64,000 nucleotides of DNA from Elusimicrobia bacterium UBA5214 (GCA_002412545.1 DHVG01000002.1:130095-194094), one strand, 5' to 3'; counted from the first letter of the stretch, positions 17,061 through 64,000 are shown. The notes: generated from the sequence alone by a model not told the origin. Program-made: numbers and translations.

Positions 17061-17197
17061 TGCCGAAAAGATTTAGGTATCATTCATTTGGCAGTGGATA
17101 TGCTCGCCGAGTTACCGAAAAAACGATAAAAAGTAAAACAAAATTTGAATAAGGTAACTCGGCTTTTATTTTGAGGGGAGAGGAGGAGTAATTAAGA

Positions 17198-21722: not shown

Positions 21723-21775
21723 GTGTGACCATTTCTCAAAAAGATAAAGAACTGCAGGCAGGACAACACCGTCCC

Positions 21776-22895
21776 TCAGTAGAATTTGTTAACAACGAAT
21801 TTAGCAATTCGACAGGCAGCATCAGGGAGAGAAAACTTTTTTACACGATTTTGTAATTCCTTAATTTTTTCCGGTGAATTAACCAGTTTGACAATCAAAG
21901 AGACAATTTTATCCGGTTCGGTCTCCACATAACCAAGTTCATGTTTCTTAATTAGTTCCGCATTACCTTCTTCCTGCCCGGGAGTAATATGGGTAATGAT
22001 TATCGGTTTACCAGCAGCAAGACATTCGGTTACAATTGCTCCTCCAGCTTTAGTTACCACTAAATCCGCTGCCCGTAAGTAATTAGCCATATTATCTACC
22101 CAGGAGAAAATGCGTGTTGACGGGAAATATTTTCTTTTGCTTAATTCTTGGTAAACATTCTCATACTTGCCGCAGATTACCATAATCTGTCCAGGTAGAC
22201 CTACATAATTGCTTAACTTCTTAATTACTGCAAGCAATTTTTCTATTTTTCCTAAACCAAGGGTGAAAAGGATAGTCGGCACTTCCGAGTTTAATCCTAA
22301 ATCGTTAAGGAATTTGTTCCGATTGAAAGGTTCACCAAGTTCAGGATTTACTGGGAAACCAAAGACCTTGATTTTTTCCGGATTAACCCCTTGGTTTATA
22401 ATTACTTCGGCAGTATCTTGGTTCGGAACAAAATAGTAATTGACTAATTCACTTAGCCACGAATAGTGTATAGAAATTGAGTCAGTAATTACCATTAAAT
22501 ATTTTATTTTTTGGTTAAACTTTTCGTTATATACTTCAAGGATATAATTCCAGTAAGGATGAGTAGAAATAAGCAGGTCCGGTCTCTTTTCGTTGAAAAG
22601 TTGGTAAAATGGTTTATAAAAAGGTTCAGTAAAAATGTTCATAATCCGGAATATCTGTTTACAGTTGGTAAGACGGTAGGTTAAGTCCCAGAGGGAAGGA
22701 CAATATTCAACACTTTTTTCGTAGTAGTTACGGGCAAAATTGGTAATTAAAGGATTACCAATTTTTACTAAATCAAGCACCTCAGTTTCTACTTCTTCCG
22801 GGTATCCGCCGATTTGGCGGATTGCTTCATTGAGATAACGTGCGGCAGTTAGATGTCCTGAACCATAACTTGCGGTTAAAATGAGGATTTTTTTC
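21776..22895 (-). CDS. Monogalactosyldiacylglycerol-synthase-like glycosyltransferase (MGDG_synth N-domain plus GT1 C-domain)
   Basis: MKKILILTASYGSGHLTAARYL start with RBS agagga. The C-terminal GT-B block (VTKAGGAIVTECLAAGKPIII...PGQEEGNAE) is present. Confidence 0.7.
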
Positions 22896-22997
22896 ATTTT
22901 GAAGTAATTCCTCTTAGCACTGATTACTACAGATAAAGACCCTGATGACCACGGATAAATCTGCGTAATCTGGTCTCTAATCTGTGTAATCTGCGTT

Positions 22998-26991: not shown

Positions 26992-27092
26992 TCCGTTATT
27001 TCCGTTGAGTCCGTTTTGACCGTTTAGTCGGTTATTTCCGTTGAGACCGTTGAACGGGCTGAACGGACTAAACGGATTAAACGGACTTAACG
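26992..27092. repeat. Roughly 100-bp hairpin built from CCGTT/AACGG heptamer-like repeats. It fills the entire proA-nadD intercistronic gap.
   Basis: The left half is (tccgtt[atg]n)x6 and the right half is (aacgg[agt]n)x6, so the two halves are reverse complements. Confidence 0.85.
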
Positions 27093-27093
27093 C

Positions 27094-30225: not shown

Positions 30226-30564
30226 TTATGAGTATCTTTCTTCTTGTCCAGTATGCAATTCAGGAGAATAAAGCTCGTATGTTGATAAATGGTGTTCATA
30301 CCTCACTAATTTTTCTTTTTCCAGTTGATACAATATATAGTCAAGTTCGTCAGTCGGTATATCCGAGAATGCCTGGGCTATCTCCTCACGAGAAAACACT
30401 CTGGTTCCCGGTACTTTTTGTTGTTCTTTCCTCAGCCAATTGAGAACGCTTAGTTTTCTTTTTTCCTTTCTTCCTACAAACCATTTCCATAATAACTTGT
30501 AAAGTAGATTGATAATTTTTCCTTTCACTTTTCTATTTTTCCACTTTCGGATAAATGCCGTCAA
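30226..30564 (-). CDS. Small basic hypothetical protein (possible wHTH regulator) overlapping the R-M gene start
   Basis: Lys/Arg-rich N-terminus and C-terminal SREEIAQAFSDIPTDELDYILYQLEKEKLV. It overlaps the start of 30533-33658 by 32 nt. Confidence 0.3.
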   Translation of the reverse strand: MTAFIRKWKNRKVKGKIINLLYKLLWKWFVGRKEKRKLSVLNWLRKEQQKVPGTRVFSREEIAQAFSDIPTDELDYILYQLEKEKLVRYEHHLSTYELYSPELHTGQEERYS

Positions 30565-33500: not shown

Positions 33501-33658
33501 TCAGTTTTCTTTGGTAGAGTGGTAATATGGATATTTTTTTTGCCGACCGATTCTATATATTCCTGTAGTAATCCTTCAAGGATTGAGTAGTAACTCTCTT
33601 CCCTTGCGTCTCCATGTTGGGCAACTCCAAAGATTTTTTCTAAATATGCTTTCAACAT
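30533..33658 (-). CDS. MmeI-like Type IIL/IIG restriction-modification enzyme: N-terminal PD-(D/E)xK nuclease, N6-adenine MTase and a C-terminal TRD
   Basis: DFRVWDGSQHIVGYIEAKEP is a D-x13-EAK nuclease motif at the N-terminus. MTase motif I is VLDPAAGTLTFL and motif IV is IFGNPPYSG (NPPY). Total length is 1041 aa. Confidence 0.75.
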   Translation of the reverse strand: MLKAYLEKIFGVAQHGDAREESYYSILEGLLQEYIESVGKKNIHITTLPKKTEAGNPDFRVWDGSQHIVGYIEAKEPKNEDLDQTEETEQLKRYRHTFPNLILTNFFEFRRYHNGTLIDKVLIGRPFIVHKLKTVPPVEKEQDFVKLLEKFFSFSLPKVYDAKTLAIELANRTRFLRDEVVAQELKEEEEIGKGFILGFYEAFRKYLISGLTKEDFADLYSQTITYGLFAARTRSENEFNRKLAYDKIPPTIGILRDVFHFISLGKPSQQMEWIIDDISEVLAVTDVKNILHKYFHEGKGKDPIVHFYETFLAEYDPQTREKRGVYYTPEPVVSYIVRSLHRILKEHFNRKDGFASELVTVLDPAAGTLTFLAEASKLVVNEFVHKYGEGGKENLIREHILKNFYAFELMMAPYAVGHLKMSFLLEELGYELKDDDRFKLYLTNTLEMEELAQTELPGMVSLSEESHLAGKVKKETPILVIFGNPPYSGHSYNVGEWISKEIKVYYQVDGKPLGEKNPKWLQDDYVKFIRFAQWKIDQAGEGILGFITNHSYLDNPTFRGMRQSLMNSFNEIYILDLHGNITKEKGKCPDGSKDGNVFDIRQGVAIALFIKKKDEKRECEVHHSDLWGLQEKKYDWLLKNDIKTTKWQKISLKSEFFYRFIPTERKLFKLYYSYPKITDIFLANSVGIVTARDNLTIKWKPEEVWQTILNFSKLDPELARQAYSLGKDARDWKVELAQKDLEESGLDKKKIVPILYRPFDIRYTYYTGKSRGFHCMPRPEIMYHMLAGENLGLITIRRSRSVEDWRYAFVTDKVVAGATSITALDINYLFPLYLYQEKKDNPKKRSLGSVIMLFEPQADYGAKKPNLSPEIVEQLTKEFKKIPSPEQIFFYVYAILYSNIYRTRYAEFLKMDFPRIPLTKDYKLFSKMAEYGKRLVDLHLLKSAELDPPVAKFQGKGNYKIEKVKYEKGRVYINNEQYFEGIKPEIWKYQIGGYQVCDKWLKDKIGTTLNDIKPYCKIVTALQKTIEVQKLIDGIYPKVEK

Positions 33659-33668
33659 TTTATTCTTT

Positions 33669-34664
33669 TCAATGTTTAGTTTTCTTTTTTTCCCTCTCTC
33701 TTAAACACATCTCAGCAGCGAGTTTAACTGCGGAGAACATCGGGCGTGCGTCAGCGAGATTTTTACCGGCAATGTCAAAAGCAGTGCCGTGTCCGGGTGA
33801 AGTGCGAATGAAGGGCAAACCAAGGGTAACATTGACTAAAGAATAAGGGTCAAGCAGTTTTAGAGGTATCATTGCCTGGTCGTGATACATTACAATAATT
33901 AAATCATATTTTTTCCACCACTGGAAAACCGTATCTGCCGGTAAAGGACCTGTAACTTGCAACTTGTAACCTGTAACTTGTTTGATTGCCGGGATGATTA
34001 TCTCTTTTTCTTCCTTACCGAGAACTCCGCCTTCGCCGCGGTGCGGATTTAAGGCACAAACCGCAATTCTTAGTTTAGCAATAGAGAAATATTTTTCTAA
34101 TGCTTTGGCTCCAAGTTTAATTGCCAAAATAATTTTTTCTTTAGTTAAACTATTAGCGACATCTTTTAAAGGTAAATGCCGGGTAACCATTGCTACTTTA
34201 AGTTTTTTGTTCACCATCAGCATAAGCAAATTCTTTTTCCCGGTTAATTCAGCAAGGATTTCGGTATGTCCGGAATAATTCAATCCGGCACGGTTTAATG
34301 CTTCTTTAGATATCGGTGCAGTAACCAAACCGTCCACCTGTCCATTCTGCACCAATTCTACTGCTTTTTTGATATATTCATAACTTAATTGTCCATACTC
34401 AGAGTTAGTCATACCGAAGTTTAGTTTCCTAATCTTGCCGATATTGATTAATTCAAATTCTCTATTGGAAACGACTGGAGGGTATTTTTTAAGATAAAAG
34501 TCTAAAACTGATTTTGTACCGATAACTACCGGTTGGCAAATTTGGTAAACTTCTTTCTTGGCAAGTGTTTTGATGACTATTTCCGGACCGATACCTGCAG
34601 GGTCACCGATTGTGATTGCAAGAGACGGCTTTTTACTCAATTTCGCTAATTTTGATTGTAGCAT
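33669..34664 (-). CDS. pdxA: 4-hydroxythreonine-4-phosphate dehydrogenase
   Basis: ITIGDPAGIGPEIV, HTE, NPHRGEGG and SPGHGTAFDIAGK are PdxA signatures. It contains an in-frame repeat (33949-33980). Confidence 0.85.
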   Translation of the reverse strand: MLQSKLAKLSKKPSLAITIGDPAGIGPEIVIKTLAKKEVYQICQPVVIGTKSVLDFYLKKYPPVVSNREFELINIGKIRKLNFGMTNSEYGQLSYEYIKKAVELVQNGQVDGLVTAPISKEALNRAGLNYSGHTEILAELTGKKNLLMLMVNKKLKVAMVTRHLPLKDVANSLTKEKIILAIKLGAKALEKYFSIAKLRIAVCALNPHRGEGGVLGKEEKEIIIPAIKQVTGYKLQVTGPLPADTVFQWWKKYDLIIVMYHDQAMIPLKLLDPYSLVNVTLGLPFIRTSPGHGTAFDIAGKNLADARPMFSAVKLAAEMCLREREKKKTKH

Positions 34665-35703
34665 TACTCCTTAATTGTTTTAAGAAATCCTGATATATTT
34701 TTTCTGCTTTACTCCGATAGAGATACTCTTGTAACTCTTCCTTCACTTCGCTATAAGTGAGTTTACTTTTTGCTTTTTTCTCTTCACATTTGATTAAATG
34801 ATAACCAAAATCAGTCTCCACAATATCGCTTACTTCGCCCACCGGTAAGGAAAAGGCAACTTTTTCAAATTCGGGAACCATATCGCCGTGGACAAAAAAA
34901 CCGAGGTCGCCGCCTTGTTCTTTACTTCCCGGGTCTTCAGAATATTTTCGTGCTAATTCACTGAAATCTTCACCGTTTTTAATCTTTTGTTGGATTTCTT
35001 TGATTTTGTTCAGTGCAGTTGTCTTATCCTGCATACTGGCATTTTTTTCTACCCGAATAAGAATATGTCTCACTCGGACACGTTCAGCAGTGCGCCGCTG
35101 AAAGAATTTGGCTAAACTGGCAATTTCATTTTCTTCTTCAGCGGATAGATTTGGGTCTTGTTTCCCGTCAATTTGGTCAACAATTTTATCGTACAATTTT
35201 GTAGTTTCTTCTTCTTTGGGTACCCCCACTTTCGCTTTTATTTCTAAATCAATAAGTTTAATCACCATCAATTGGTCCTGGATTCTTTTTTCAAAATCAG
35301 TTTCAGTTAAAGATTGTTTTTTTAATTCGGTTTGGAAATCTTCCGGGTTAGGGAAACGTTTTTTTACTTCGTTGACCCCATCCTCAATCTCTCTTTTGGC
35401 AACCACAATTTTGCGTTTCTTTGTCTCCTGAAGTAAGATTTTTTCGTCAATCATCTGATTGAGGACATCTTTTTTTAACTGACGGATTTTTTCCGTAGTT
35501 TGTTCACTTGCCGGGGTTAAAAGTTTATATTGTTCAACTAATGGCTGGACATTTTTTTCTAACTCGGAGAGAAGGATTGCCTCACCATTAACCATAGCGA
35601 TAGTTTTATTTACCACCGTTTTCTCTTGAGCAAGGACTGACTGAGTCAGTAACCAATAACCGATAACCAGTAACCAATAACCGAATTTCAAGGATTTCTT
35701 CAT
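34633..35703 (-). CDS. SurA/PrsA-like periplasmic chaperone with a parvulin PPIase domain
   Basis: Signal peptide and a parvulin block VRHILI...GGDLGFF..G.M...F...AF.L..GEVS..V.T.FGYHLIK. The signal peptide itself is encoded by the tandem repeat LVIGYWLLVIGYWLL. Confidence 0.7.
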   Translation of the reverse strand: MKKSLKFGYWLLVIGYWLLTQSVLAQEKTVVNKTIAMVNGEAILLSELEKNVQPLVEQYKLLTPASEQTTEKIRQLKKDVLNQMIDEKILLQETKKRKIVVAKREIEDGVNEVKKRFPNPEDFQTELKKQSLTETDFEKRIQDQLMVIKLIDLEIKAKVGVPKEEETTKLYDKIVDQIDGKQDPNLSAEEENEIASLAKFFQRRTAERVRVRHILIRVEKNASMQDKTTALNKIKEIQQKIKNGEDFSELARKYSEDPGSKEQGGDLGFFVHGDMVPEFEKVAFSLPVGEVSDIVETDFGYHLIKCEEKKAKSKLTYSEVKEELQEYLYRSKAEKIYQDFLKQLRSNATIKISEIE

Positions 35704-35729: not shown

Positions 35730-38700
35730 TTAAATTTTACTATTTTCAAGAAGATTTAGCAAGTATTTTGTTAAAAAAAATATTGTTCTTTCCTGGGGGA
35801 AATTATGCAGGTTTAAATGTAGGAATTTTTCTTGGAGGAAAAAAACTTTCCCGCGATAATTTTCGGTAAATCTTTTTATTTTCTCTCGGTCAATATTCGC
35901 TTCAGGAAAGAAACTTATTTCCAATCCGCCACGGAGGGATTTTTTACTTTTGATTTCTTTAATCATCAGTTTCTTTGCTAAAATGCGTAACTCGGCTAAA
36001 GAGAAAAGGTTTTCGGTTGGTTCGGGTATTTTACCGAAACGGTCAAGGAGTTCATCTTTCATCTCTTTTAATTCTTTCGTTGAAGACACCGAAAGAATGC
36101 GTTTATAAAAGATAATTCTTATTGAAGAAACCGGGATATAGTTTTCCGGTAAATGCGCTTCCAGAGGAAAATCAAATAGCGGTTCTTTTTCTTTCGATAC
36201 AGTTTCGCCTCTAAGTTTTTTGACTTCTTCTTCTAAGAGGCGGCAGTAAAGGTCATAACCGAGTTCACCAATGAAACCGTGCTGTTGCGGACCGAGGACA
36301 TTCCCAGCACCACGGATTTCTAAATCTCTTAAAGCAAGACGCATTCCCGAACCTAAAGAAGTAAATTCGGTTAACGCCTGCAGCCGTTTTAACGCACTTT
36401 CGGTAAGTTGCGTGTCACGATTATAAAAAAGGTAACAATATGCCTTCTGGTCGCCTCTACCGATGCGTCCGCGTAGTTGATAAAGTTGAGCTAAACCAAA
36501 TTCTTCCGCATTTTCTACAATTAAAGTATTAACCCGGGGCAAGTCCAAACCGGACTCAATGATACTTGTAGAAACAAGTACCGCATATTCACCGGTCAAA
36601 AATTTATGCATTGTTTTTTCCAGTTCCCGGGCGGACATTTGCCCATGGGCTAAACCAAATTTTATCTCCGGGAGAAAATTCTTCAGCCGGTTGATTACGG
36701 TTAGAATCGTCTCAATCCGGTTATGGACATAAAATACCTGTCCCCCACGGTTAAGTTCCGAAAGAACCGCCTTCTTAATTATTCCATCATTGTGAATAGA
36801 GATGCAGGTTTCAATTGGTAACCGTCCTTCCGGTGGTGTTTCAATTACCGAAACTTCACGGAGTCCACTTAAAGTCATAGATAATGTCCGGGGTATCGGT
36901 GTTGCGGAAAGAGTAAGTGTATCTACAGAAAAACGCAATTTTTTTAATTTTTCTTTTGCACCTACACCAAAACGATGTTCTTCGTCAATCACTACTAAAC
37001 CTAAATCCTTAAATCCAATATCTTTCTGCAAGAGACGATGTGTGCCGATAATGATATCAATTAACCCATTTTTTAAATCGGAAAGAATTTTTTCTTGTTC
37101 TCTTTTTGTCCGGAAACGGGAAAGCATTTCAATATTTACCGGGTATTCTTTGAACCGTTCAGTAAAAGTGCGGTAATGTTGTTCAGCAAGAATTGTTGTC
37201 GGGACGAGCAGGGCTACCTGTTTACCAGCAAGAGCAACTTTTAATCCTGCACGCATCGCTACTTCAGTTTTACCATAACCGACATCACCAATCACTACCC
37301 GGTCCATCGGTTTGGAAGAGATTAAATCAGTTTTCACTTCTTCAATTGCTTTTGCCTGGTCAGGTGTTTCTTCGTAAGGGAAACTGGCCGCAAATTCTTT
37401 TTCAATATAGGAGTCGGGAGGGAAAGAATAAGCGGGTAAAATTTGACGCTGGGCATAAACCTGGAGAAGTTCACGAGCAAAATTATAGAGTGATTCTTTT
37501 ATTTTTTGTTTAAGTCGTTCCCAGGAAATACCATCAAGGGAATAAATTCTTGGACGATGTCCTTGCGGACCGATATATTTCTGGACTAAACGGAAATCAG
37601 TAATTGGCACATAAAGTTTGTCACCGCCTTTATATTCAAGAGAAAGGAAGTCAGCATATTTATTCTCAATGAGGAGATGTCTTAATCCACGGTAGATACC
37701 GATACCATACTGCTCATGAACGATGTAGTCACTGGGTTGGATTTCACTCAGATGTTCAAGGATGCCTCCACTGCGGAATTTTGGTAAACGGTAATGAATT
37801 TTATAGCGGGCAAAAATATCGTTACCGGTAATAATAACTAATTTCATTTCGGGCAAAAGAAAACCATTTACTAAAGGACCAATAAAAATGGGTAAACTTA
37901 TTTCCGGTTTTTTTTCTTCTAAAAGGGCAGACAACCTTTCTTCTTCCTGTCGGTTTTGTGCATAAAGATAAATTTTATATTTTTCTTTAATCCAAGTTTC
38001 CAGTTCTTCTAAAAAAAGAGTAAATTTACCGTTAAAACTTGGTAAATCTTGTGCGCCAAAATTAAACGTTTCGTGAGCAGGCAAAAGAACATTTTCTACT
38101 TGCTTAAAATCGGAAAATTCATTTGACTTCACTGTTTCTTTTACATCAATATCCCAGAAAATTAAGGTATTTTTGGGAAAATACTCGGCAAACCCTGAAC
38201 CATTACGGTTCAGGGCAAGTGGAGTTTGTTTTTCTATGGAAGCAGGAATAATTTTTGCTTCTTGAATATTTTCTTTTGAACGCTGGGTAGTGACATCAAA
38301 AAGACGTATTTCTTCAATTTTATTTTCAAAAAAAATAATCCGCAAGGGTAAAACAAAATTTGCTGCCCAGAGGTCAACAATTTCGCCGCGGACACTATAT
38401 TCACCGCTTTGTTCAACGAAATCTATCCGTTCATATCCGGCAGAAGTTAAATAATTGACGAATTCATCACGACTGATTTCTTCTTCAAGTTTAATTTCCC
38501 GACAAAATTTGATGAATTTATCTTTTTTCGGGATAGTTTTTCCCAGAATTTGAGCAGAAGTAACCAGAATTGAGACCTTATTTTCTAAAATTTCATTCAG
38601 ACCGGCAATCTGTGCCTGATGGACTTTTTCGGGATATAAATATATCTTTTTAGTTAACTTAAAAAATATTTTTAATGCTTCCAAATCGTCAGTAAGTTCT

Positions 38701-45453: not shown

Positions 45454-45833
45454 TAGTCCTTACCTCTTTGATAGACAGTAGATTTTTCGATTATAGTGAA
45501 TATCTCATTTATGTCAACCGGTTTATAAAGGCAGGTATAAGCACCGAGTTCTTTTGCCTTGTTTTCAAAAGTAAAGGCAGGGTCTGAACTGCTGCTGAAG
45601 ATCACTACAACCTGGGTCGGTCGTAATTGTTTGATAATTTTCAGTGCTTCCGGTCCTCGCATTCTCGGCATATGCACATCTAAAAAAATAATATCAAAAG
45701 TATCTTTTTTTACCATTTCTATACCTTCTAACCCATCGTTAGCGGTAAATACTTCAAAACCGTTTGGTTCTAAGAGAAATTTAAACAAATCCCGTATTCC
45801 TTGTTCGTCATCAACAACTAATATTTTTTTCAT
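45453..45833 (-). CDS. Single-domain response regulator
   Basis: KILVVDDEQGIRDLF...DIIFLDVHMPRMRG. Confidence 0.85.
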   Translation of the reverse strand: MKKILVVDDEQGIRDLFKFLLEPNGFEVFTANDGLEGIEMVKKDTFDIIFLDVHMPRMRGPEALKIIKQLRPTQVVVIFSSSSDPAFTFENKAKELGAYTCLYKPVDINEIFTIIEKSTVYQRGKD

Positions 45834-45932
45834 TTCCGATTTCCGATTTTAGATTTACGATGTCAATCGTCAATCAACAATCATCAATCACTAAATCGGT
45901 AGTTTTCTCGTAAAAGTTGTTCCTTTCTTTGA

Positions 45933-51908: not shown

Positions 51909-52883
51909 TTAAATAAGTTTTACTTCTTGTTTACCGGAAACGATTTTACCAATAATAACCGAGTTTTTCAGTAACTTATGAACTCGTGAACTTATCAACC
52001 CTGAACCAAAACGGTTCAGGGTAAACTTATCAACTATTATCACCATGCCAACTCCCATATTAAATATACGGAACATTTCTTTTTCCGGAATTTTACCTTT
52101 ATCCTGAATGATGCGGAAAATTTCCGGTACTTGCCAACTTTTTTTATCAATTACCGCTTGACAATTCTTGGGTAAAATACGAGGTATATTGTCGTAGAAT
52201 CCACCACCGGTGATGTTGACGATTCCGCTGATGGCTGATGGCTGACGGCGGATGGCGGATAATATCTCTTTGACATAAATCTTGGTAGGGGTGAGGAGTT
52301 CTTCACCGTATTTAATTAGTTCTTTTTTGGAGAAAATTTTGCGCACTAAGGAGAAACCGTTTGAATGTAAGCCACTTGAAGGTAGACCGATAATTAAATC
52401 ACCGGGTTTAATTTTTCTACCATCAATAACTTTATTTTTTTCTACCAAACCGACGGTAAAACCAGCTAAATCGTATTCACCTTCATGATAAAATCCGGGC
52501 ATTTCAGCAGTTTCACCACCAAGAAGGATACAATCTGCCTGACAGCATCCTTCGTTTATACCTTTGATAATTTGTTCGGCAACTTTTAAATCCAATTTAC
52601 TACAAGCGAAATAATCAAGAAAAAATAAAGGTTTTGCTCCACAACAGATTACATCGTTGACATTCATTGCTACTAAATCAACCCCGACGGTATTGTGTTT
52701 ATTTAAGAGAAAAGCGAGTTTAAGTTTTGTGCCGACACCGTCACTGGAAGCAGAAAGATAATGTTTCTTATCTAATGGATATAAACCGCTAAATCCGCCG
52801 ATTACCGGAGCAATTTTTTTAATCCTTTTTACGAAAAGGTTACCTTTGTCAATGTCTACACCCGCTTGTTTGTAAGTTACCAT
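51909..52883 (-). CDS. purM: Phosphoribosylformylglycinamidine cyclo-ligase (AIR synthetase)
   Basis: VTYKQAGVDIDKGN, DGVGTKL and LVAMNVNDV are PurM signatures. In-frame AGCCATC repeat at 52226-52262. Confidence 0.9.
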   Translation of the reverse strand: MVTYKQAGVDIDKGNLFVKRIKKIAPVIGGFSGLYPLDKKHYLSASSDGVGTKLKLAFLLNKHNTVGVDLVAMNVNDVICCGAKPLFFLDYFACSKLDLKVAEQIIKGINEGCCQADCILLGGETAEMPGFYHEGEYDLAGFTVGLVEKNKVIDGRKIKPGDLIIGLPSSGLHSNGFSLVRKIFSKKELIKYGEELLTPTKIYVKEILSAIRRQPSAISGIVNITGGGFYDNIPRILPKNCQAVIDKKSWQVPEIFRIIQDKGKIPEKEMFRIFNMGVGMVIIVDKFTLNRFGSGLISSRVHKLLKNSVIIGKIVSGKQEVKLI

Positions 52884-52985
52884 TATTAAGCTCCTTTTGG
52901 CTATTGGCCTTTAGCCATTAGCTTTCAGCCAGATGCCCGGGCTAAGAGCCGATGGCTAACGGCTATTCGTTAAAGGCTAATAGCC

Positions 52986-54257
52986 TCATTTCACTATTGG
53001 TAAGATTGCCGCACCGTTAGGGATAATATATGTCTTAAAATTATTCCCGTGTTTTTTTCTCAGATAACTCAATATTTCATTTATATCTTTCTTGTAGGAA
53101 AAATGCATTTCTTCAACCAATTCTTTTGCCAAAGAAGAAACCACGATTACTTCACATTTTTTTAGTATTTTAGCAGTTAAATATGCACGATGTCCCTCTA
53201 CTTCAATATCTTCTTCTTTTTTGTGTAATATTTCTTCAAGATGATGTTTTCTTAACCATTTCTCAAAGACAGGTTGCCCGACACCGTCACGACATTCAGC
53301 AAGGAGAACAATAGTTCCTCCCTCTTTGGTTATTTCTGCGCTTGCAGTTATGGTTTTCTGTGACTGGTATAAATTTATATCTTTAGGATAACCGCCACAA
53401 CTGCTGATTACTACTTCTGCCTTTTCAGGAACAGTAACTGAATAAAGTGATTGAGCAATTTTAATTCCAGCAAAGAATGCTTTTTCAAAATCACCAGCAA
53501 CTATACCAATAATTTCCTTCGTACTATTACGAATAACATTAAGAATAAAAAAAGGTTTAGTGCTTGCTACCCGATGTGCAGCTTCTAACATTTCTTCGTG
53601 GATAGGATTATTTTCCAGTTTACCGATTTCGGTTCCTCGCCGGCATACTTTACTATGGTTTTTGGTAATCGTTTTTCTACCACTTACTCCGGGAAGAATT
53701 GCTTTCCGACCGCCACCGTAACCAGCAAAAGCGTGAGGTTCAATATTACCGGTAGCAATCAAGAAGTCAGCTTGAGCAACATACTTATTTATCCATAGTT
53801 CATTGCCAGTAGATAATTTACCCAAAGAGATAAGGTCATCAGCATCAGGATTATGGTCAATAAATTGGAACCTGTTGATTAACGCTTCTCCGTAAATTTT
53901 TTTATTTTCTTCTGCACGATGTTGCCGGTGTGTGCCGTAAGCAATGATGAATCTTATTTTTTCGTCAGAAATACCAGCAATTTTAAGTTCTTCAATCAAG
54001 GAATCAAGAATTTCCCGGTAATCCGGATTAGGACGAGTAATATCTTCTACAATAATTACGAGATTATTTGGTTTTATCTTTTCTGCAATTTCTTTCAATG
54101 GTTCGCTACCGATAGGATTTTTTAAAACTTTTTTTATCTCTTCCCGAGGATTAGTAATTTTTTCTCGTTGAGTAGATAGTTCTAAAACTCGGAGCAGATT
54201 TTTTTCTTCTAATTTCAAAATTTGTGTAGATTCACCGTATTTAAGTTTTATTTCCAT
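52986..54257 (-). CDS. LarA-like (lactate racemase / DUF2088) family protein
   Basis: The size and overall pattern (N-terminal DUF2088-like region, central His/Lys-rich region KNHSKVCRRG...) are compatible with the LarA family. I could not verify catalytic residues. Confidence 0.4.
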   Translation of the reverse strand: MEIKLKYGESTQILKLEEKNLLRVLELSTQREKITNPREEIKKVLKNPIGSEPLKEIAEKIKPNNLVIIVEDITRPNPDYREILDSLIEELKIAGISDEKIRFIIAYGTHRQHRAEENKKIYGEALINRFQFIDHNPDADDLISLGKLSTGNELWINKYVAQADFLIATGNIEPHAFAGYGGGRKAILPGVSGRKTITKNHSKVCRRGTEIGKLENNPIHEEMLEAAHRVASTKPFFILNVIRNSTKEIIGIVAGDFEKAFFAGIKIAQSLYSVTVPEKAEVVISSCGGYPKDINLYQSQKTITASAEITKEGGTIVLLAECRDGVGQPVFEKWLRKHHLEEILHKKEEDIEVEGHRAYLTAKILKKCEVIVVSSLAKELVEEMHFSYKKDINEILSYLRKKHGNNFKTYIIPNGAAILPIVK

Positions 54258-56375: not shown

Positions 56376-56380
56376 TTACT

Positions 56381-56462
56381 CAGTTAATTCGGTTTAGTCG
56401 GTTAATTCTGTTTGGTCCGTTCAACGGTCATAACGGACATAACCGACAAAACGGACAAAACA
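56381..56462. repeat. CCGTT/AACGG heptamer-array hairpin between DUF1284 and pyrD (same family as 26992-27092)
   Basis: ttaattcggtttagtcggttaattctgtttggtccgtt | caacggtcataacggacataaccgacaaaacggacaaaac. Confidence 0.85.
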
Positions 56463-56472
56463 TTTTTTGCGA

Positions 56473-57501
56473 TCATTCGTGTATCATACTGCCGGTTAGT
56501 TTACTCAAGGTAATTTTTTGTATTTTAAGATATTGTTTTAGACCGATAAGTATTTTCTGTGGTAAAAATGGGTCACGGAAAAGAGCGCTACCTAAAGCAA
56601 TTGCTTTTGCACCGACAAGAAAAAATTCTATTGCATCTTGAGGACTATTTATTCCACCCATACCGATAATTGGTATTTTAACCTTTTGGTAAGTTTCGTA
56701 AATCATCCGTAAAACAATTGGTTTAATTGCTGGACCAGATAAACCACCAAAGACTGGTGAGTGGGAAGTGGTGAGTGGTGAGTGGGGAAAGGCAAGGGCG
56801 GAGAAAGTGTTGACTAAAGAGAGAGCATCGGCACCGGCAGATTCGGCAGTTTTGGCAATTACAGTTATATCCGTAACATTAGGGGTAAGTTTAGCAATTA
56901 CCGGTAATTTGGTTACCTTTTTTACTCTCTTTACCACCTCGTAAGTCAGTTCTGCATCCTGCGAGATAAGCGAAATTACTCCTTGCTCGGAGTTTATCCC
57001 CCCATTCTTGCTTTCGCCTGCCCCCGCGTCTCCCGACGCAAGTCGGGGCGGCGGGCAAGAAAGCAGGGGGGGACTCTTTGCTCTTGGCTCTTTGCTACGA
57101 ACATTCGGACAAGAAAGATTTAATTCCAGAGCAGATATACCTTTTTCTTTGTCTAATCTACGAGAAATCTCAGCGAATTCTTCTGCGTTCTCCGCAGCAA
57201 TACTTACGACTATTGGTATTTTAAGTTTTCTTTTTAAAAAAGGTAATTTTTCTTTTAGAAAAATTTCCAAACCCGGATTTTCCAGACCAATTGAATTAAT
57301 CATTCCTTCCATTGTTTCTACAATTCTCGGCGACGGATTACCCGCACGCGGTTTAAGAGTAACTGTCTTTGTAGTTATCGCCCCGAAAACATTCAGGTTA
57401 ATTAACTTACTGTATTCTTCACCAAAACCAATAATTCCACTGGCAACAAGGAGTGGATTTTTTAGTTTTATTCTGGCAATTTCAGTTGATAAATTAACCA
57501 T
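56473..57501 (-). CDS. pyrD: Dihydroorotate dehydrogenase catalytic subunit (class 1B)
   Basis: NPLL.ASG, ...ELN.SCPN..., GG and other TIM-barrel FMN motifs. It carries a ~35-aa low-complexity insertion (AKSPPLLSCPPPRLASGDAGAGESKNGGINSEQG) encoded by a GC-rich palindrome at 56997-57098, plus a heptamer repeat at 56745-56790. Confidence 0.85.
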   Translation of the reverse strand: MVNLSTEIARIKLKNPLLVASGIIGFGEEYSKLINLNVFGAITTKTVTLKPRAGNPSPRIVETMEGMINSIGLENPGLEIFLKEKLPFLKRKLKIPIVVSIAAENAEEFAEISRRLDKEKGISALELNLSCPNVRSKEPRAKSPPLLSCPPPRLASGDAGAGESKNGGINSEQGVISLISQDAELTYEVVKRVKKVTKLPVIAKLTPNVTDITVIAKTAESAGADALSLVNTFSALAFPHSPLTTSHSPVFGGLSGPAIKPIVLRMIYETYQKVKIPIIGMGGINSPQDAIEFFLVGAKAIALGSALFRDPFLPQKILIGLKQYLKIQKITLSKLTGSMIHE

Positions 57502-57547: not shown

Positions 57548-59254
57548 TCATTTCAAAATCGTGATTCCATATTTATCTATTAATATTTTTGTAGTTTTGT
57601 CTATTAATAAATCTTTTTCTACGCTTTTGGCGGAAATCAATTGCTCAGGTAGTTTATCTATTTTCACCCAGTTTCCTTCTACAAATTTAGCAATTTGTTC
57701 AATTTTATGCGGATAAAGTATACCCTGATGCCAAGGTTCCCAATTTGTTTTGTAACCTTGCGCATAGAGTATACCATCACTCAAATAAATATTTTCTACA
57801 TAAAAATTAGGCGAAATCGTTCGTAGAGCCAAAGTTGAAACATTTATTTCATCAATTTCGGAATACTTCTCACCTTCCATTTCAGGGTAGATTCTCAAAA
57901 TATAAATTAAATTTTCTGTTCCAAGTACATAGTTCCTGTCAGGTGCGGAGTAGAGTCTGTAGTTATTTGAACCACTTATATGTTTGATAGTTAAGCTATC
58001 TAAGTCTAATATATCCAACCCACGATTCGTTTGCATAAGCACTTTTTTTCCAAGAGAAGTAATTAGTATTTCATACCTCATGGGTTCTTGTACAAATTGG
58101 GCAATTTCCATTATCCATCTCTGTTCATCAAGGGAAAATATTTTATTTCTAAGCACAAAATTCTTATGCATACCGAAATAAGGAATTTTCTCCATCATAT
58201 CTAATTGTGGAATTTTACTTAATTTATTTACAATTTTTTCCATTTTTTCTTCAGAGTAATCTTCAAAATATTTTTTTAGGTCTGAATCTTGATGGTATCG
58301 TTTGTAGCCATCTTGGTATCCTCTTAGAAATCTTGCTAAGTCAAATCTTGGGTAAGATTTAATCATAGAAATATCGTTGAGCAACCTGTCAATCGTTTCT
58401 TCTGTCTGAATTAGTCGGAATATCTTCCATTTTCCGTTATTCTTGTCGTATTCCGCTATTCTCGTATCATAATAATTTTGGAAACCAACAAGAACCCAAG
58501 CATATTTAGGAGATACAACAAAACAGTCTATAGTGGCATATGGACTTTGATCCCCCATTAATTCGTCATGATGATAAGTCTTCCATTCCCCAGAGATTTT
58601 ATTGTAGCAAAGCAATACACCCTTTGACCTCCTCTCAGCAAATGGTACAATCCATACGAAAGTAGTTTCAATAACTGCATAATTATTACCCGGTGGTTCA
58701 TCTATTCCTAATTTAGTATATATATGATTCAAGTTCTCCCACAGACCGATTTTAGTGTCATAAATATCGATACGATGGAAACTTGATATCCAGATGGTTT
58801 CTGTTTTCTGGTCATATACAAACTTTAAATTTTCATTTGCTCCGAATTCCGTGCTTTGACTTACCTTAAAATCATCTACAAATTGTTTGCTGGTTAAATC
58901 AAAAATCTTAATTCCATCGCGCCAAGTTCCCACCCATAATTTGTTTTCTATTTTGGCAAGTGAGGAAATTCCACTCTCTGATTTTGGCAGTCGGTATACC
59001 AAAAGGCCGTTGTCCGAAGGATTAAACTCACCTAAACCGCTTGTAAGAGGTAGGTACCATCTTCCTTCGAATTCTACTGCCGCGGCACCATTAATTGCGG
59101 TAGTATTAGGCAACCAAATTGTTTTTCCATCGGTTTGGTAAAGAGGAACAAATTGAGGCGGGAAATCTTCACCAAAACAAATACTACAACAAATAAATAA
59201 CATATTTAACCAGAATACTATTTTTGTTAGTTTTAACATTTTTTCAAATTTCAT
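57548..59254 (-). CDS. Secreted 568-aa hypothetical protein (possible beta-propeller repeats) embedded between pyrK and pyrD
   Basis: Signal peptide MKFEKMLKLTKIVFWLNMLFICCSICFG. Repeated W.GTW.DGI.IFD / IWISSFHRIDIYD-like blades. Its start overlaps the pyrK stop (ATGA). Confidence 0.5.
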   Translation of the reverse strand: MKFEKMLKLTKIVFWLNMLFICCSICFGEDFPPQFVPLYQTDGKTIWLPNTTAINGAAAVEFEGRWYLPLTSGLGEFNPSDNGLLVYRLPKSESGISSLAKIENKLWVGTWRDGIKIFDLTSKQFVDDFKVSQSTEFGANENLKFVYDQKTETIWISSFHRIDIYDTKIGLWENLNHIYTKLGIDEPPGNNYAVIETTFVWIVPFAERRSKGVLLCYNKISGEWKTYHHDELMGDQSPYATIDCFVVSPKYAWVLVGFQNYYDTRIAEYDKNNGKWKIFRLIQTEETIDRLLNDISMIKSYPRFDLARFLRGYQDGYKRYHQDSDLKKYFEDYSEEKMEKIVNKLSKIPQLDMMEKIPYFGMHKNFVLRNKIFSLDEQRWIMEIAQFVQEPMRYEILITSLGKKVLMQTNRGLDILDLDSLTIKHISGSNNYRLYSAPDRNYVLGTENLIYILRIYPEMEGEKYSEIDEINVSTLALRTISPNFYVENIYLSDGILYAQGYKTNWEPWHQGILYPHKIEQIAKFVEGNWVKIDKLPEQLISAKSVEKDLLIDKTTKILIDKYGITILK

Positions 59255-60105
59255 TCCCAGATTATTTGATTTGCTTCAAAAACTGGTCCATCTTTACAGA
59301 CGGTCTTGTAGACGAAATGCTGGTGGCTAGTGGTTAGTGATTGATGGCTGGTTTTCACAACACATCCTCGGCAAGCACCAAGACCACAAGCCATCATTGC
59401 TTCTAAAGATACCTGATAGGGAATTTTGTATTTTTGTGTAATTTTAGCAATTTCTTTTAGCATTGCATAGGGACCACAAGCATATATATTAGTTATGAGT
59501 GATGAGTTATGAGTTATGAGTGAATTTCTGAACAGGTCAGTGACAAGACCTTTATAACCAAGGGAACCGTCTTCAGTAGCGAGTTTAACCTGGCAACCAA
59601 GTTTTTTGAAATTATCAATGCAGAGGAGGTCGTTTTTTGTTTTTGCACCAAGGAAAACAGTTAAAGGTGTAAGGTGTGAAGTGTAAAGTGTAATTAACTT
59701 CTGAGCAAGGAAGAGAAGTGAGGCGACACCGGTGCCACCGGCGATGAGGATGGGTGATTGGGTGATTGGGTGATTGAGTGATTGAGTAAAACCGTTACCG
59801 AGGGGACCAAGCACATCTAAAGTATTACCTTTTTTCTTTCGGGATAAGAGTTCAGTTCCTTTACCGACAACTTTGTAGATTATTTCAACCTGATTTTTTT
59901 TGACTTTCGCGATACTGAAAGGACGACGAAGGTAAGTACCTTCTCCACAATAAATATGGACAAATTGTCCCGGTTGAGCAATTTGGGCAATCTGTGGGGC
60001 AGAAAAAATTAAACGAAAATAGCCGGATGAGATTTCTTTCTGGTCAGTGATTAAGGATTGTAAATGATAAACTTTATTCTGAATAGACAATTTTGCCGTT
60101 AACAA
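59251..60105 (-). CDS. pyrK: Dihydroorotate dehydrogenase electron-transfer subunit
   Basis: FAD/NAD-binding FNR-like fold (RPFSIA, GGTGVA) and a C-terminal 2Fe-2S Cys cluster (CGLGACRGC). It holds four separate in-frame tandem-repeat insertions. Confidence 0.8.
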   Translation of the reverse strand: MLTAKLSIQNKVYHLQSLITDQKEISSGYFRLIFSAPQIAQIAQPGQFVHIYCGEGTYLRRPFSIAKVKKNQVEIIYKVVGKGTELLSRKKKGNTLDVLGPLGNGFTQSLNHPITQSPILIAGGTGVASLLFLAQKLITLYTSHLTPLTVFLGAKTKNDLLCIDNFKKLGCQVKLATEDGSLGYKGLVTDLFRNSLITHNSSLITNIYACGPYAMLKEIAKITQKYKIPYQVSLEAMMACGLGACRGCVVKTSHQSLTTSHQHFVYKTVCKDGPVFEANQIIWE

Positions 60106-61354
60106 TAGTATTGACTACCTTACCCGTTACCTGCCAGCCAAGAAAAGGTGAATTTTTACTTTTGGAAACAAAATTTTCTACTTTCCATTTCTTGTTCAAG
60201 TCAACAATGGTAATATCGGCTGGAGAACCAGGTTTCAGTTGTCCGGAGTTGAGTTTCAAAACTTGTGCCGGATTAATCGTGACTTTGGCGATTGCTTCCA
60301 TTAACGAGATAATTTTCTTATTTACTAATTCAGTAACCACCAAGGAAAGTAAAGTTTCCAAACCGATAATCCCAAACGGTGCTAAATCGTATTCTTTATT
60401 TTTTTCTTCTTCAGTATGTGGTGCATGGTCAGTAGCGATACAGTCAATTGTTCCGTCTGTTAATCCCTTTTTGATTGCTTCCACATCTTCTTTCGTTCTT
60501 AAAGGAGGATTAACTTTTGTATTTGTGTCAAATTGAGAAACTTTCTCTTCAGTAAGAGTGAAATATTGTGGTGCAGTTTCACAGGTAACCCGGATACCTC
60601 GTTTTTTTGCTTGCCGGATTAGTTCTACCGAGCCAGCAGTAGAAATATGAGCAATATGCAAATGCCCACTGGTAAGTTCAGCTAAGATTATATCCCTTGC
60701 TACCATTGCTTCTTCGGCTTCTTTTGGTATCCCGTGGAGACCTAAAATTGTAGAATAGTATCCTTCATTCATTGCTCCATCTTTAGATAAATTTTTGTCT
60801 TCACAATGGGAAATTACTGGCAAGTCAAACATTTTTGCATATTCTAATGCCCGACGCATAATCAGACTATTCATTACTGTTTCACCGTCATCAGAAATTG
60901 CTACGATGCCGGCTTTTTTCAATTCACCAATTTCGGATAATTCTTCACCTAACGAACCTTTAGTGATTGCACCAATTGGTAAAACATTGACCACACCTTC
61001 ATTTTTTGCTTTGAGCAGAATAAATTCAACCGTGGTTTGGTCGTCAATTACTGGATGAGTATTTGGCATACAACAGACGGTAGTAATACCACCTTTTGCT
61101 GCTGCCCGTGTCCCAGTAGCAATCGTCTCTTCTTCTTCATGTCCGGGTTCACGCAAATGGGTATGCATATCAATAAGTCCGGGAATAACAATTTTACCTT
61201 TAGCATCAATGACTTTTATGGCTGATGGCTGTTGGCTGATGGCTGATGGCTTACCGATAGAAACAATTTTGCTATCTTCAACTAAAATATCGGTGATTCT
61301 GTTCGTTTTACTTGCCGGGTCAATTACTCTACCACTTTTAACGAGCAACTTCAT
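60074..61354 (-). CDS. pyrC: Dihydroorotase
   Basis: Amidohydrolase metal ligands DMHTHLREPG, ...HxH and D...H. In-frame AGCCATC repeat at 61213-61245. Confidence 0.85.
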   Translation of the reverse strand: MKLLVKSGRVIDPASKTNRITDILVEDSKIVSIGKPSAISQQPSAIKVIDAKGKIVIPGLIDMHTHLREPGHEEEETIATGTRAAAKGGITTVCCMPNTHPVIDDQTTVEFILLKAKNEGVVNVLPIGAITKGSLGEELSEIGELKKAGIVAISDDGETVMNSLIMRRALEYAKMFDLPVISHCEDKNLSKDGAMNEGYYSTILGLHGIPKEAEEAMVARDIILAELTSGHLHIAHISTAGSVELIRQAKKRGIRVTCETAPQYFTLTEEKVSQFDTNTKVNPPLRTKEDVEAIKKGLTDGTIDCIATDHAPHTEEEKNKEYDLAPFGIIGLETLLSLVVTELVNKKIISLMEAIAKVTINPAQVLKLNSGQLKPGSPADITIVDLNKKWKVENFVSKSKNSPFLGWQVTGKVVNTIVNGKIVYSE

Positions 61355-63395: not shown

Positions 63396-64000
63396 CTAAC
63401 TCCCTAACTTCCTAACTGCTTTTATCCCGATATCTCTTCGGTAATGCATCTTCTCAAATTTTATTTTTTCTACCGCGCTATATGTATTCTTTATCGCTTT
63501 TTCTATATTTTCACCTAAACCAGTTACACCGAGCACTCTCCCGCCATTGGTCACTAAAGTTGACCGTTCACCGTTCACCGTTAACCGTTTAGTGCCAGCA
63601 TGGAAAACAGTTATATTTTGCATTTTTTTCGTTTCTTCAAGACCAAATATTTCTTTACCTTTTTCGTAATCACCCGGATAGCCACCAGAAGCGAGGACGA
63701 CACAAACTGACGAACAAGCAGACTGGTGATTAGTGGTTAGTGATTGGTAATCGGACAAATTTTTGTCAATTGTGGCTAAACAGAGGTCAACTAAATCTTC
63801 ATTAAGCAAAGGTAAAGTTACCTGTGCTTCCGGGTCACCGAAACGACAATTGAACTCTAAAACTTTTGGTCCTTCTTCAGTAATCATTAAACCAAAATAG
63901 ATTATCCCCCGATAGTCCAGTTTTTCTGCATTTATCCCTTTTATAAAGTTAGCAAATATTTCTTTATCTATTTTTTTTCTAATTTTTTCGTTAATAATCG
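63396..64000 (-). CDS. purD: Phosphoribosylamine--glycine ligase (partial; the N-terminus lies beyond the window end)
   Basis: GIIYFGLMITEEGPKVLEFNCRFGDPE ATP-grasp block. The frame is open past 63887 to the window edge. Two in-frame heptamer repeats (63545-63575, 63715-63745). Confidence 0.85.
   Translation of the reverse strand, partial: IINEKIRKKIDKEIFANFIKGINAEKLDYRGIIYFGLMITEEGPKVLEFNCRFGDPEAQVTLPLLNEDLVDLCLATIDKNLSDYQSLTTNHQSACSSVCVVLASGGYPGDYEKGKEIFGLEETKKMQNITVFHAGTKRLTVNGERSTLVTNGGRVLGVTGLGENIEKAIKNTYSAVEKIKFEKMHYRRDIGIKAVRKLGS

Follow-up and report, generated by a model that had tools for sequence, protein, structure and literature searches.

Within a 64-kb stretch of DNA from Elusimicrobia bacterium UBA5214 (GCA_002412545.1 DHVG01000002.1:130095-194094), referred to below as the window, the heptanucleotide AGCCATC is repeated head to tail in the genes yggS, purM and pyrC, which raises the question of how one unit came to occupy unrelated loci. 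A preliminary description of this DNA had favoured templated spread of a mobile minisatellite over local slippage. The comparisons given here point away from such an element, as the arrays share no flanks, phases or variants, their orthologues are stable and seeds for the units are present in anchor codons of the host proteins. We consider it probable (roughly 0.6) that the AGCCATC arrays are heptanucleotide simple sequence repeats (SSRs) that grew in situ by slippage, with frame-restoring turnover and a three-frame coding filter; the slippage step itself is inferred from the sequence.

The window, which stems from an uncultured lineage, has a GC content of approximately 37% and 92% of its bases lie within open reading frames (ORFs). 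Arrays were called with Tandem Repeats Finder (TRF) together with purpose-written period scans, and expectations were taken from the shuffled window. Host genes were assigned through Pfam and PDB matches, LarA was identified as well, and the names yggS, purM, pyrC, pyrK and LarA given in the preliminary description were correct. Relatives were represented by the syntenic contigs L013, L012, L010, L008, L136 and L137 with protein identities of 73-92%; a contig scan with PyrD gave distant relatives only and the nearer ones came from protein searches. Comparison within the same population relied on the consensus sequences only of four assemblies, which were identical across 7-21 kb except for one short N run in L005. 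An assembly artefact was ruled out, as the arrays were the same in the three other assemblies and had orthologues in the relatives.

AGCCATC arrays in conserved enzymes

The five-unit AGCCATC arrays in yggS, purM and pyrC were recovered by TRF and by our own scans (Table 1), and the unit said to be partly present in pyrK at 59320-59350 corresponded to a decayed period-7 tract. The 64 kb contained AGCCATC at three array loci and at two degenerate ones. Exact AGCCATC occurred 14 times against 4.4 expected, a count reached in none of 100 shuffles. Nine of these copies were inside arrays or degenerate tracts and the remaining five singletons matched expectation. The excess resided wholly in arrays. 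AGCCATC was invariably on the sense strand because its complement GATGGCT holds TGA, which would come in frame every 21 nt.

The three arrays had no shared flanks, boundary phase or variant units. Each carried private variants, namely ATTAGCC twice in yggS, ATCCGCC twice together with GTCAGCC in purM and AGCCAAC in pyrC, and private variant units were duplicated in adjoining units. The unit phase at the array boundaries in pyrC differed from that in purM and yggS. An association with a neighbouring motif was not seen: there were no common flanks in the window or among the 129 AGCCATC arrays listed from metagenomes, where no k-mer other than the repeat itself was enriched. The purM array occupied a variable segment between the conserved motifs KEIL and GIxHITGGG.

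A wider population of short-period arrays

The recurrence of AGCCATC stands, and this unit is one among many in the window, which the preliminary description had overlooked. Seventeen period-7 arrays were found in the window against 0.05 expected from shuffles, and one period scan counted 14 against 0.05. Looser scans gave 20-23 tracts against 0-1.5 expected, including 20 against 0.0 at a cut-off of at least 20 of 28 lag-7 matches, and the density was approximately one tract per 3 kb. Exact period-7 tracts of 17-20 nt numbered 12 (0.15 expected) and none in the window exceeded 20 nt, therefore every array was interrupted. At least 13 different units were represented among the 17 arrays, and the modal length of exactly 34 nt was shared by seven of them. 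Periods 8 and 9 were also enriched, period 6 showed a slight excess and periods 5 and 10-12 were at or near background.

Most of the period-7-covered bases (704 of 822) were within ORFs, and coverage amounted to 1.2% of coding and 2.4% of spacer bases. Array hosts included fumarase, yggS, argS, pdxA, surA, purM, pyrD, pyrK, pyrC, purD and a BcrAD/BadFG-type ORF. The period-9 hairpin arrays lay between genes.

Table 1. Short-period arrays and array-based hairpins of the window, in order of position
Location	Position	Strand	Unit or structure	Peptide or remark
Fumarase C-terminal-domain gene	1600-1633	+	ATAGTTG/AAAGTTA	TAA in consensus unit, avoided in frame
BcrAD/BadFG-type ORF, 1431 aa	5754-5796	+	ACTTACC/ACTCACC, 6 copies	
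yggS	13780-13814	+	ATTAGCC ATTAGCC ATCAGCC ATCAGCT ATCAGCC	In frame, ORF aa 66-78; ELAISHQPSAISQ
yggS, second site	14151-14181	+	GCTACTC-type heptamer array	CYSLLATRYSL
argS	23264-23303	-	ATCAACT, 5.5 copies	INYQLLTINYQLLK
Intergenic 9-mer hairpin	26992-27093		Inverted arrays GTCCGTTYA / AACGGNNNN	dG -40
pdxA	33948-33981	-	ACAAGTT-type heptamer array	KQVTGYKLQVTG
surA	35644-35682	-	GGTTATT, 5 copies	Codes signal-peptide core GYWLLVIGYWLLT
Intergenic pair	45832-45890		Adjoining ATTTCCG, 3.5 copies, and TCAATCR, 4 copies	Most of a 99-nt spacer
purM	52226-52260	-	Coding strand ATCCGCC ATCCGCC GTCAGCC ATCAGCC ATCAGCG	In frame; LSAIRRQPSAISG
larA-purM spacer hairpin	52899-52985 (87 nt)		Arms 52899-52931 and 52953-52985	
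Intergenic 9-mer hairpin	56376-56472		Inverted arrays, same AACGGAC family	dG -26
pyrD	56752-56785	-	CCACTCA, 5 copies	PHSPLTTSHSPV; segment as long as the array-less one of L. lactis PyrD and L003
pyrD	57074-57096	-	Short AGCAAAG-type heptamer array	SKEPRAKS
pyrK, C-terminal	59316-59354	-	Decayed period-7 tract, 19/28 lag-7 matches, one exact AGCCATC	KTSHQSLTTSHQHF
pyrK	59483-59521	-	ACTCATA, 5 copies	SLITHNSSLITNIY; TAA in consensus unit, sole in-frame copy is TCA
pyrK	59660-59693	-	TTACACT-type heptamer array	ITLYTSHLTPLT
pyrK	59746-59787	-	Octamer array, coding strand CCAATCAC type	TQSLNHPITQSPIL
pyrC	61216-61251	-	AGCCATC AGCCATC AGCCAAC AGCCATC AGCCATA	In frame near N-terminus; KPSAISQQPSAIK
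purD	63556-63589	-	AACGGTG, 5 copies	KRLTVNGERSTL; unit has TGA, two in-frame copies mutated to TTA, TCA
purD	63716-63760	-	Degenerate CAATCAC-type period-7 tract	

Local seeds, length change and the coding filter

As a check on insertion versus replacement, host proteins were aligned to solved structures and to relatives. Arrays lay in variable protein segments where the net gain over array-less homologues ranged from 0 to +13 aa. PurM gained 2 aa relative to the E. coli protein and none relative to many Elusimicrobia homologues, PyrD at site 2 gained none relative to L. lactis PyrD and L003, PyrC gained 3 to 4 aa and YggS at site 1 gained 5 to 6 aa. The C-terminus of PyrK, with a gain of ~10 aa, is an insertion hot spot where array-less homologues are shorter by that amount. 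Among 120 PurM homologues the modal segment was 19 aa with or without arrays, and longer forms exceeded it by 2, 3 or 4 aa and not by 7. A 34-35-nt cassette cannot explain these steps, whereas unit gain combined with unit loss or with a small compensating indel can.

Material from which the units could have grown was present next to several arrays. Array-less PurM homologues read S[AI]IKKYPSAIKG at the array site, and Pro-Ser-Ala-Ile encoded as CCA TCA GCC ATC already amounts to 1.7 heptamer units. Anchor codons containing the unit adjoin arrays, with Pro-Ser-Ala-Ile encoded by CCATCAGCCATC and Asn-Gly-Glu by AACGGTGAA. The 3' end of the purM array adjoins conserved x-Ile-[His/Lys/Ser/Thr]-Gly codons in every lineage and the unit varies with these codons. 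In yggS the array has its start at TTA GCC, the codons of a conserved Leu-Ala pair.

In three of the 17 coding arrays a stop codon falls within the consensus unit (AAAGTTA, ACTCATA and AACGGTG), and in these a substitution was present in exactly the copies read in frame. The arrays would be the outcome of a DNA-level process that is blind to frame and was then filtered by selection. Their sense strand held 14 G and 37 C, relative to a G/(G+C) of 0.55 for the genome coding strand (P = 1e-4), and this G-poor composition leads to peptides rich in Ser, Thr, Pro, His, Gln, Leu and Ile. The AlphaFold model of YggS had a mean pLDDT of 94.5; its least confident part was array site 1 (pLDDT 70-87), which was predicted to lie at a helix end and loop.

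Orthologous arrays in relatives

Contigs L008, L010, L012, L013, L134, L135, L136 and L137 carried arrays at a density similar to that of the window, and the syntenic contigs had them at the same protein sites, with an identical unit, a unit altered in every copy or an unrelated unit. Orthologous arrays keep five units. L010, L136 and L137 all had the pyrC AGCCATC array, five units long, and homologues at 72% identity or below lacked it; the purM and yggS AGCCATC arrays were limited to the window lineage, apart from the purM array that was also found in L013. The unit at the purM site was ATCAGCC in the window and L013, ATCACCC/ATTACCC in L012, ATCGCTC in L008, ACGTTAC in L010 and CTATCAA in L136. 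ATCACCC of L012 differs from ATCAGCC by one base in every unit, as predicted by evolution in place.

The purM marker unit GTCAGCC occupied the third place in the array of the window and the fourth in that of L013, the total length being constant, and the surA unit GGTTATT of the window was replaced by GGCTRTT in all L008 units, a fixed difference at one position that indicates concerted evolution. Taken together, the marker-unit shift and the all-copy changes are marks of concerted evolution at constant length. The array DNA was also more conserved than its host proteins: the purD array was identical to that of L137 at 36 of 36 positions at a protein identity of 77%, and the CCACTCA array of pyrD matched that of L010 at 35 of 36 nt at a protein identity of 78%. 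Such conservation is expected if homogenisation erases single-copy changes and if a change, once it spreads through the array, is non-synonymous in the two remaining frames.

Presence and absence were also recorded. The pyrD array at 57074-57096 was found in L010 and was absent from L136, L137 and L001. The purD AACGGTG array was found in L137 and was absent from L136, which has one AATGGTA at Asn-Gly codons.

L136 compared with L008 and L137 (94-99% identical) differed mainly in dense mismatch clusters of 40-230 nt. Among the three contigs many of the clusters, not all, were at arrays, and their distribution looks like a mosaic that would have formed by homologous recombination with divergent alleles.

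Recurrence of units across loci and genomes

The occurrence of one unit at unrelated loci exceeded chance, as the preliminary description had implied. Under a null in which local heptamers supply the units, P was 0.005 for three pairs of arrays with the same unit among the 17 and 0.001-0.003 for one unit in at least three of 14 coding arrays. For the AGCCATC triple, P rose to 0.015 and 0.03 once units were restricted to stop-free heptamers with at most one or no G. AGCCATC-type tracts were not significantly clustered in the window (P = 0.06).

Other units recurred in the same manner. ATCAACT was shared by argS of the window and purM of L136, CCACTCA by pyrD of the window and pyrK of L136, CTCATAA by pyrK of the window and yggS of L134 and L135 with an identical 13-aa peptide, and GCTACTC by yggS of the window and purM of P0003 with an identical heptapeptide. 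Among non-orthologous pairs, unit sharing was no higher within genomes (3 of 169 pairs, 1.8%) than between genomes (10 of 329, 3.0%), where the pairs are non-independent as most involve the same AGCCATC arrays. This pattern points to a restricted repertoire of units and not to recent spread within a genome.

AGCCATC arrays were common in metagenomes and, among the matches listed, their contigs spanned 38-75% GC. On viral contigs AGCCATC formed 50 arrays and control heptamers of the same composition formed 42, 41 and 11. The notion of AGCCATC as a universally favoured or travelling unit was rejected, as control heptamers form arrays about as often, and these similar counts indicate that its ubiquity reflects heptamer arrays in general. 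In the metagenome listing, 18 of 129 AGCCATC arrays (14%) had an inverted partner within 150 nt and many loci had two or more arrays of the same unit 50-100 nt apart. A second AGCCATC array stood 114 nt from the first in L014, and its homologue L061 has unrelated sequence there. A literature search on GATGGCT or AGCCATC repeats found no papers.

Hairpins formed from and beside arrays

The region 52897-52990 had been described as a further tandem array with small palindromes. The palindromes GGCTAATAGCC and GGCTAAGAGCC are present; TRF found no tandem array and there is one exact AGCCATC only. The region instead holds a hairpin between the larA stop codon and the purM ribosome-binding site, with imperfect arms of 33 nt each that are 79% complementary. 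Both arms are degenerate period-7 tracts of the AGCCATT type and are oppositely oriented. For the RNA fold the computed dG was -42.4 kcal/mol (z -3.9). A reading as a terminator was rejected because the transcribed strand lacks a T-run. It was the only AGCCATT-type hairpin in the window and was absent from the same larA-purM spacer of L008, L010, L012 and L013. In being a palindrome, imperfect but stable, that lies between genes of one operon, it resembles repetitive extragenic palindromic (REP) sequences and bacterial interspersed mosaic elements (BIMEs). The hairpin of 9-mers at 26992-27093 has a like architecture, and the three inverted-array hairpins, one of AGCCATT type and two of 9-mers, each fill an intra-operon spacer of 97-102 nt.

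A third copy of the AACGGAC-family 9-mer, in direct orientation, was within an ORF at 978-1014. Spacers of the relatives held another dispersed motif, GATTACAGCGAT / ATCACTGTAATCG, often paired, in the places where the window has array hairpins, among them the larA-purM spacer of the four contigs just named (L008 7136-7220; L010 9134-9252 and 5871-5958; L012 1747-1818; L013 229-275). This motif represents either a REP-like family or a pur/pyr operator.

Small GC-rich hairpins were found inside genes. Two GC-rich palindromes lie in frame in ORFs at 6750-6812 (+) and ~56979-57072 (pyrD, -), each adjoining a heptamer array. Both start with GTCCCCCC(C)TGCTT, and their DNA folds at -22.5 and -30.6 kcal/mol (z -4.5 and -4.7). 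The motif TCCCCCCTGCTT common to both had no match in the other loci that were examined. The pyrD palindrome forms a 93-nt in-frame insert (31 aa) against the 57074-57096 array and is absent from the L010 orthologue. A separate hairpin family, CCTGAACC-N5-GGTTCAGG, had two copies against none expected, at 52000-52020 in the purM C-terminus and at 38194-38214 in mfd. In purM the copy makes up an in-frame insert of 30 nt in an 8-mer array and is absent from L013 and L008, and the mfd copy is shared by L008 (12397-12417).

Further GC-rich hairpins (e.g. CCCCGCACCAAATTTGGTGCGGGG) were in frame inside heptamer arrays of pyrK and purD in L136 and L137, those in purD being within the orthologues of the 63716-63760 tract. 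In pdxA of L008 (16670-16735) a 21-aa GC-rich insert stood amid the array orthologous to 33948-33981. Hairpin inserts varied in presence between genomes that are 94-99% identical, and one insert exceeded the empty site by exactly 21 nt. A strict hairpin scan placed none of 11 hairpins next to arrays, a scan that misses imperfect GC-rich palindromes and in which insertions split the flanking repeats.

Origin of the arrays

The course that we favour would start with a weakly constrained stretch between protein anchors that holds a partial 7-nt duplication derived from anchor codons, a state seen in purM, purD and yggS. Slipped-strand mispairing would add or remove 7-nt units. In genes a single step of +7 or -7 would be a frameshift, and only frame-restoring outcomes would survive, as the pattern observed suggests. 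A gain and a loss inside one array would give homogenisation, a marker-unit shift and constant length, and a gain with a small compensating indel would give a net change of +2, +3 or +4 aa. With the heptamer read in three frames, each base of the unit would, in one copy or another, stand at all three codon positions. The array DNA would be frozen by homogenisation together with protein selection, and units with stop codons would persist only with their in-frame copies mutated, which is the state found. Selection may keep stop-free units with a G-poor sense strand, in line with the composition observed, for linkers at helix ends, loops and signal peptides, and the narrowed repertoire would cause the same unit to recur at unrelated sites. 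In spacers, arrays in both orientations would form long hairpins of the kind seen here. Slippage has indirect signs in the marker unit shifted by one place, the variant duplicates side by side and the fixed difference across a whole array.

Several observations weigh against growth by slippage in place. Whole-unit copy-number variants, which the preliminary description proposed to look for across strains, were absent among the consensus sequences of the four assemblies of the same population. Array lengths peak at ~5 units with no decay from 2-3 units, which simple birth-death slippage does not obviously predict, and length-neutral conversion of ~35 nt needs paired events. Unit sharing was ~10 times the local-seed expectation of 0.0019 per pair, and the selection filter invoked for this excess was modelled crudely. 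At yggS site 1, relatives at 75-77% identity bear unrelated units. Finally, over 5.3 kb the identity of L136 and L008 is 98.75%, but a 66-nt purM patch has different arrays in the two, which could be due to recombination between strains or to replacement from a template; other mismatch clusters outside arrays in the same alignment suggest recombination between strains.

A rival reading is templated copying, in which array donors overwrite a partly similar stretch through replication template switching or ectopic gene conversion. Donors would preferably be nearby and possibly on the opposite strand, giving inverted pairs and hairpins, and slippage would only maintain what had been copied. This is the mechanistic core of the preliminary description without a mobile element, and we regard it as unlikely on balance. 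The AGCCATC triple is improbable under local-seed nulls (P = 0.001-0.005), replacement is close to length-neutral and the pyrC array, found in L010, L136 and L137, is old in comparison with the window-lineage arrays of purM and yggS and could be their donor. The second array of L014 missing in L061, the paired and inverted arrays of the same unit among the listed metagenome loci, the absence of the larA-purM AGCCATT hairpin from four relatives and the purM patch that separates L136 (CTATCAA) from L008 would fit as well. So would CTTATCAA-type tracts in pyrK of L136 and L137 and a CATCGCT-like tract at pyrD site 2 of both, which on our own reading of the tabulated units may be tied to those of purM. 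However, the three AGCCATC arrays of the window have no common variants or boundaries, units are shared no more within genomes than between them, clustering was not significant, the triple is only marginally unusual with a restricted repertoire (P = 0.015-0.03) and the L136/L008 patch reaches past the array and stands among other recombination-like mismatch clusters.

The mobile minisatellite, or a cassette resembling a miniature inverted-repeat transposable element (MITE), would insert a pre-formed AGCCATC array of ~35 nt by means of an element-encoded or host enzyme. A length of 34-35 nt is not a multiple of three, yet the genes are all in frame, and the net change is site-dependent and never the array length. 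Conserved flanks, terminal motifs or target duplications were absent from the window and from the 129 listed metagenomic arrays, the boundary phase in pyrC is unlike that in purM and yggS, and dozens of unrelated units act alike. The empty purD site in L136 retains a proto-unit, and no transposase or reverse transcriptase was present in the 10 larger ORFs scanned against Pfam. The uniform length (seven of 17 arrays at exactly 34 nt), the purD array present in L137 and not in L136 and the larA-purM hairpin missing from four relatives speak for such an element; a cassette-type element was nonetheless rejected for its lack of shared termini, the site-dependent length change and the private variants, and we consider it highly improbable. 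It is very unlikely that the arrays are a by-product of hairpins, with insertion and excision of GC-rich hairpins and a short target duplication leaving footprints of 7-10 nt. Hairpins inside or against arrays at 6750-6812, ~56979-57072 and 52000-52020 and in relatives, the 30-nt purM C-terminal insert flanked by TTGATAAGTT direct repeats within an 8-mer array and the enrichment of periods 7, 8 and 9 are in keeping with it. Against this, the majority of arrays lack a hairpin, footprints of one unit would shift the frame of essential genes, the only clear duplication at the flanks measures 10 nt and not 7, and L136 and L137 differ by a hairpin while both have the array, which places the hairpin second. 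A selected function, whether as phase-variable contingency loci, a heptapeptide motif PSAISHQ or RNA or DNA binding sites, has hardly any probability in our estimation: the arrays reside in housekeeping genes (those for purine and pyrimidine synthesis, ArgRS, SurA and PdxA) and not in surface genes, they are interrupted and identical in four assemblies, and unrelated units at the same protein site in relatives mean that no specific peptide or nucleic-acid motif is conserved. Conservation of array DNA beyond the flanking protein identity and the very stable spacer hairpins speak for a function; the Rfam scan of the window, by contrast, assigned no family to arrays or hairpins and returned a c-di-GMP-I riboswitch only.

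A broader and speculative possibility, to which we give a low probability, is that a lineage-specific molecular drive in a sizeable Elusimicrobia clade turns unconstrained stretches of ~35 nt, within essential genes and spacers alike, into interrupted heptamer arrays with a limited set of units, and that these arrays serve as preferred landing sites for very small GC-rich hairpins that enter in frame, both belonging to one DNA-level system. Such a system might be a template-switching polymerase or a single-strand transposase-like activity, and it would parallel the heptamer repeats and small dispersed repeats (SDRs) of Nostoc. If true, it would be open to study through the presence and absence of arrays and hairpins between 94-99% identical genomes.

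Other features of the window

The riboswitch (RF01051, 59.8 bits) was at 16933-17067 (+), upstream of a type II/IV secretion ATPase gene at 17198-18319. Gene orientation turns from + to - at ~21.7 kb, which results in convergent transcription (window ~21700-24000), and the cumulative GC skew has its maximum at ~24 kb, which may be a replication terminus or simply the effect of gene strand on the skew. The gene at 30533-33658 (-) codes for a type ISP restriction-modification enzyme with N6_Mtase and Type_ISP_C domains. Between pyrK and pyrD, a 568-aa ORF (57548-59254, -) had no Pfam match and no heptamer array was detected in it; this slot is empty in L136 and L137 and contains a P-type ATPase in L010, which makes it a variable slot inside the pyr operon. 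A frameshift suspected in purD near 63890 was not real, as the frame is open up to the window end.

Comparison with known repeat systems

Among the long SSRs of most prokaryotic genomes, heptanucleotide repeats are reported to be the most abundant class; polymerase slippage has been put forward as their origin, and genes disfavour units whose length is not a multiple of three (Mrazek et al. 2007, as quoted in PMC4679880 and PMC4692102). The arrays described here correspond to the long SSRs with units of 5-11 nt (LSSR 5-11) in their head-to-tail iteration of 5-11-nt units in at least ~3 copies and their over-representation relative to composition-matched sequence. As far as that survey is quoted, the two also agree in tandem 7-nt units, a heptamer-specific excess, many loci, a free-living environmental host, slippage with a preferred 7-nt register as the proposed origin and no demonstrated function. 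In contrast to LSSR 5-11 as quoted, coding density is near spacer density in the window (1.2% and 2.4%), all arrays are short (~5 units) and interrupted, and Elusimicrobia is not among the surveyed groups listed.

The short tandemly repeated repetitive (STRR) sequences are heptamers with units such as CCCCAGT, TTGGTCA and CAACAGT that are mostly intergenic, each family having ~100 copies per genome. They have in common with the present arrays 7-nt units and several families per genome; the occurrence of one unit at many dispersed loci may be a further common trait. Unlike STRR, the arrays here comprise many low-copy units in another phylum, mostly in frame in genes, and the intergenic predominance of STRR was not found (704 of 822 period-7 bases in ORFs). 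STRR heptamers belong to heterocystous cyanobacteria, of which Calothrix PCC 7601 is named (PMC4692102). TAACTGA repeats occur in Beggiatoaceae, cyanobacteria and some Bacteroidetes, and their authors found no dispersal mechanism (PMC4679880). These are heptamer arrays as well (2-6 copies), with genic orientation dictated by stop codons and the reverse orientation read as a repeating heptapeptide (LSVISYQ for TAACTGA, AISHQPS in the present case). TAACTGA, unlike the present units, is one dominant unit that is overwhelmingly intergenic and often just upstream of start codons, and its few coding examples are in hypothetical proteins whereas here they are in conserved enzymes. Heptameric SSRs GGGAATC of Xanthomonas and GGGGAYT of Nostoc are located between the same genes in related genomes with varying length and sequence, and some inverted pairs are able to fold as stem-loops, as does 52899-52985 (PMC4692102). 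Those units are G-rich, quadruplex-forming and intergenic, whereas the units here have no G-tracts and a G-poor sense strand within genes.

The small hairpins recall other families. The SDRs of Nostoc punctiforme, reportedly described by Elhai et al. in 2008, are said to be hairpin-forming elements of 21-27 nt nested in tandem heptameric repeats. Likened by description only, they resemble the hairpins of at least 21 nt that are found here inside or against arrays and vary between close relatives, and differ in that the hairpins here are in frame in essential genes. From general knowledge, the in-frame GC-rich palindromes recall Rickettsia palindromic elements, and the spacer hairpins fill intra-operon gaps as REP/BIME elements do. 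In the latter comparison, the hairpin arms here are short tandem arrays, and no high-copy consensus was found in the window, nor a gene of the REP-associated tyrosine transposase (RAYT) type among the ORFs scanned. Phase-variable contingency loci are not a match, given the housekeeping hosts, a longest exact tract of at most 20 nt and no polymorphism among the four assemblies.

Why bacteria should prefer tandem repeats of 7 nt has been asked ever since STRR were described in cyanobacteria (1990) and prokaryotic SSRs were surveyed in 2007. Arrays in well-aligned housekeeping proteins allow birth, length change, turnover and decay to be read against hundreds of homologues, and three-frame translation acts as a built-in record of selection through in-frame stop mutations and frozen array DNA beside a diverging protein. 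Genomes that are 94-99% identical and differ by whole arrays and hairpin inserts provide an informative comparison. The low-complexity lineage-specific segments of 0-13 aa may mimic insertions or errors of gene calling and alignment, which matters for the annotation of metagenome-assembled genomes. If the arrays are products of slippage only, they extend a known phenomenon to a further group of hosts and to a higher density in coding DNA. The present case is of the known heptanucleotide SSR kind, and its new aspects are the host phylum, the multiplicity of units, the density in essential genes and the uniformly short, interrupted form.

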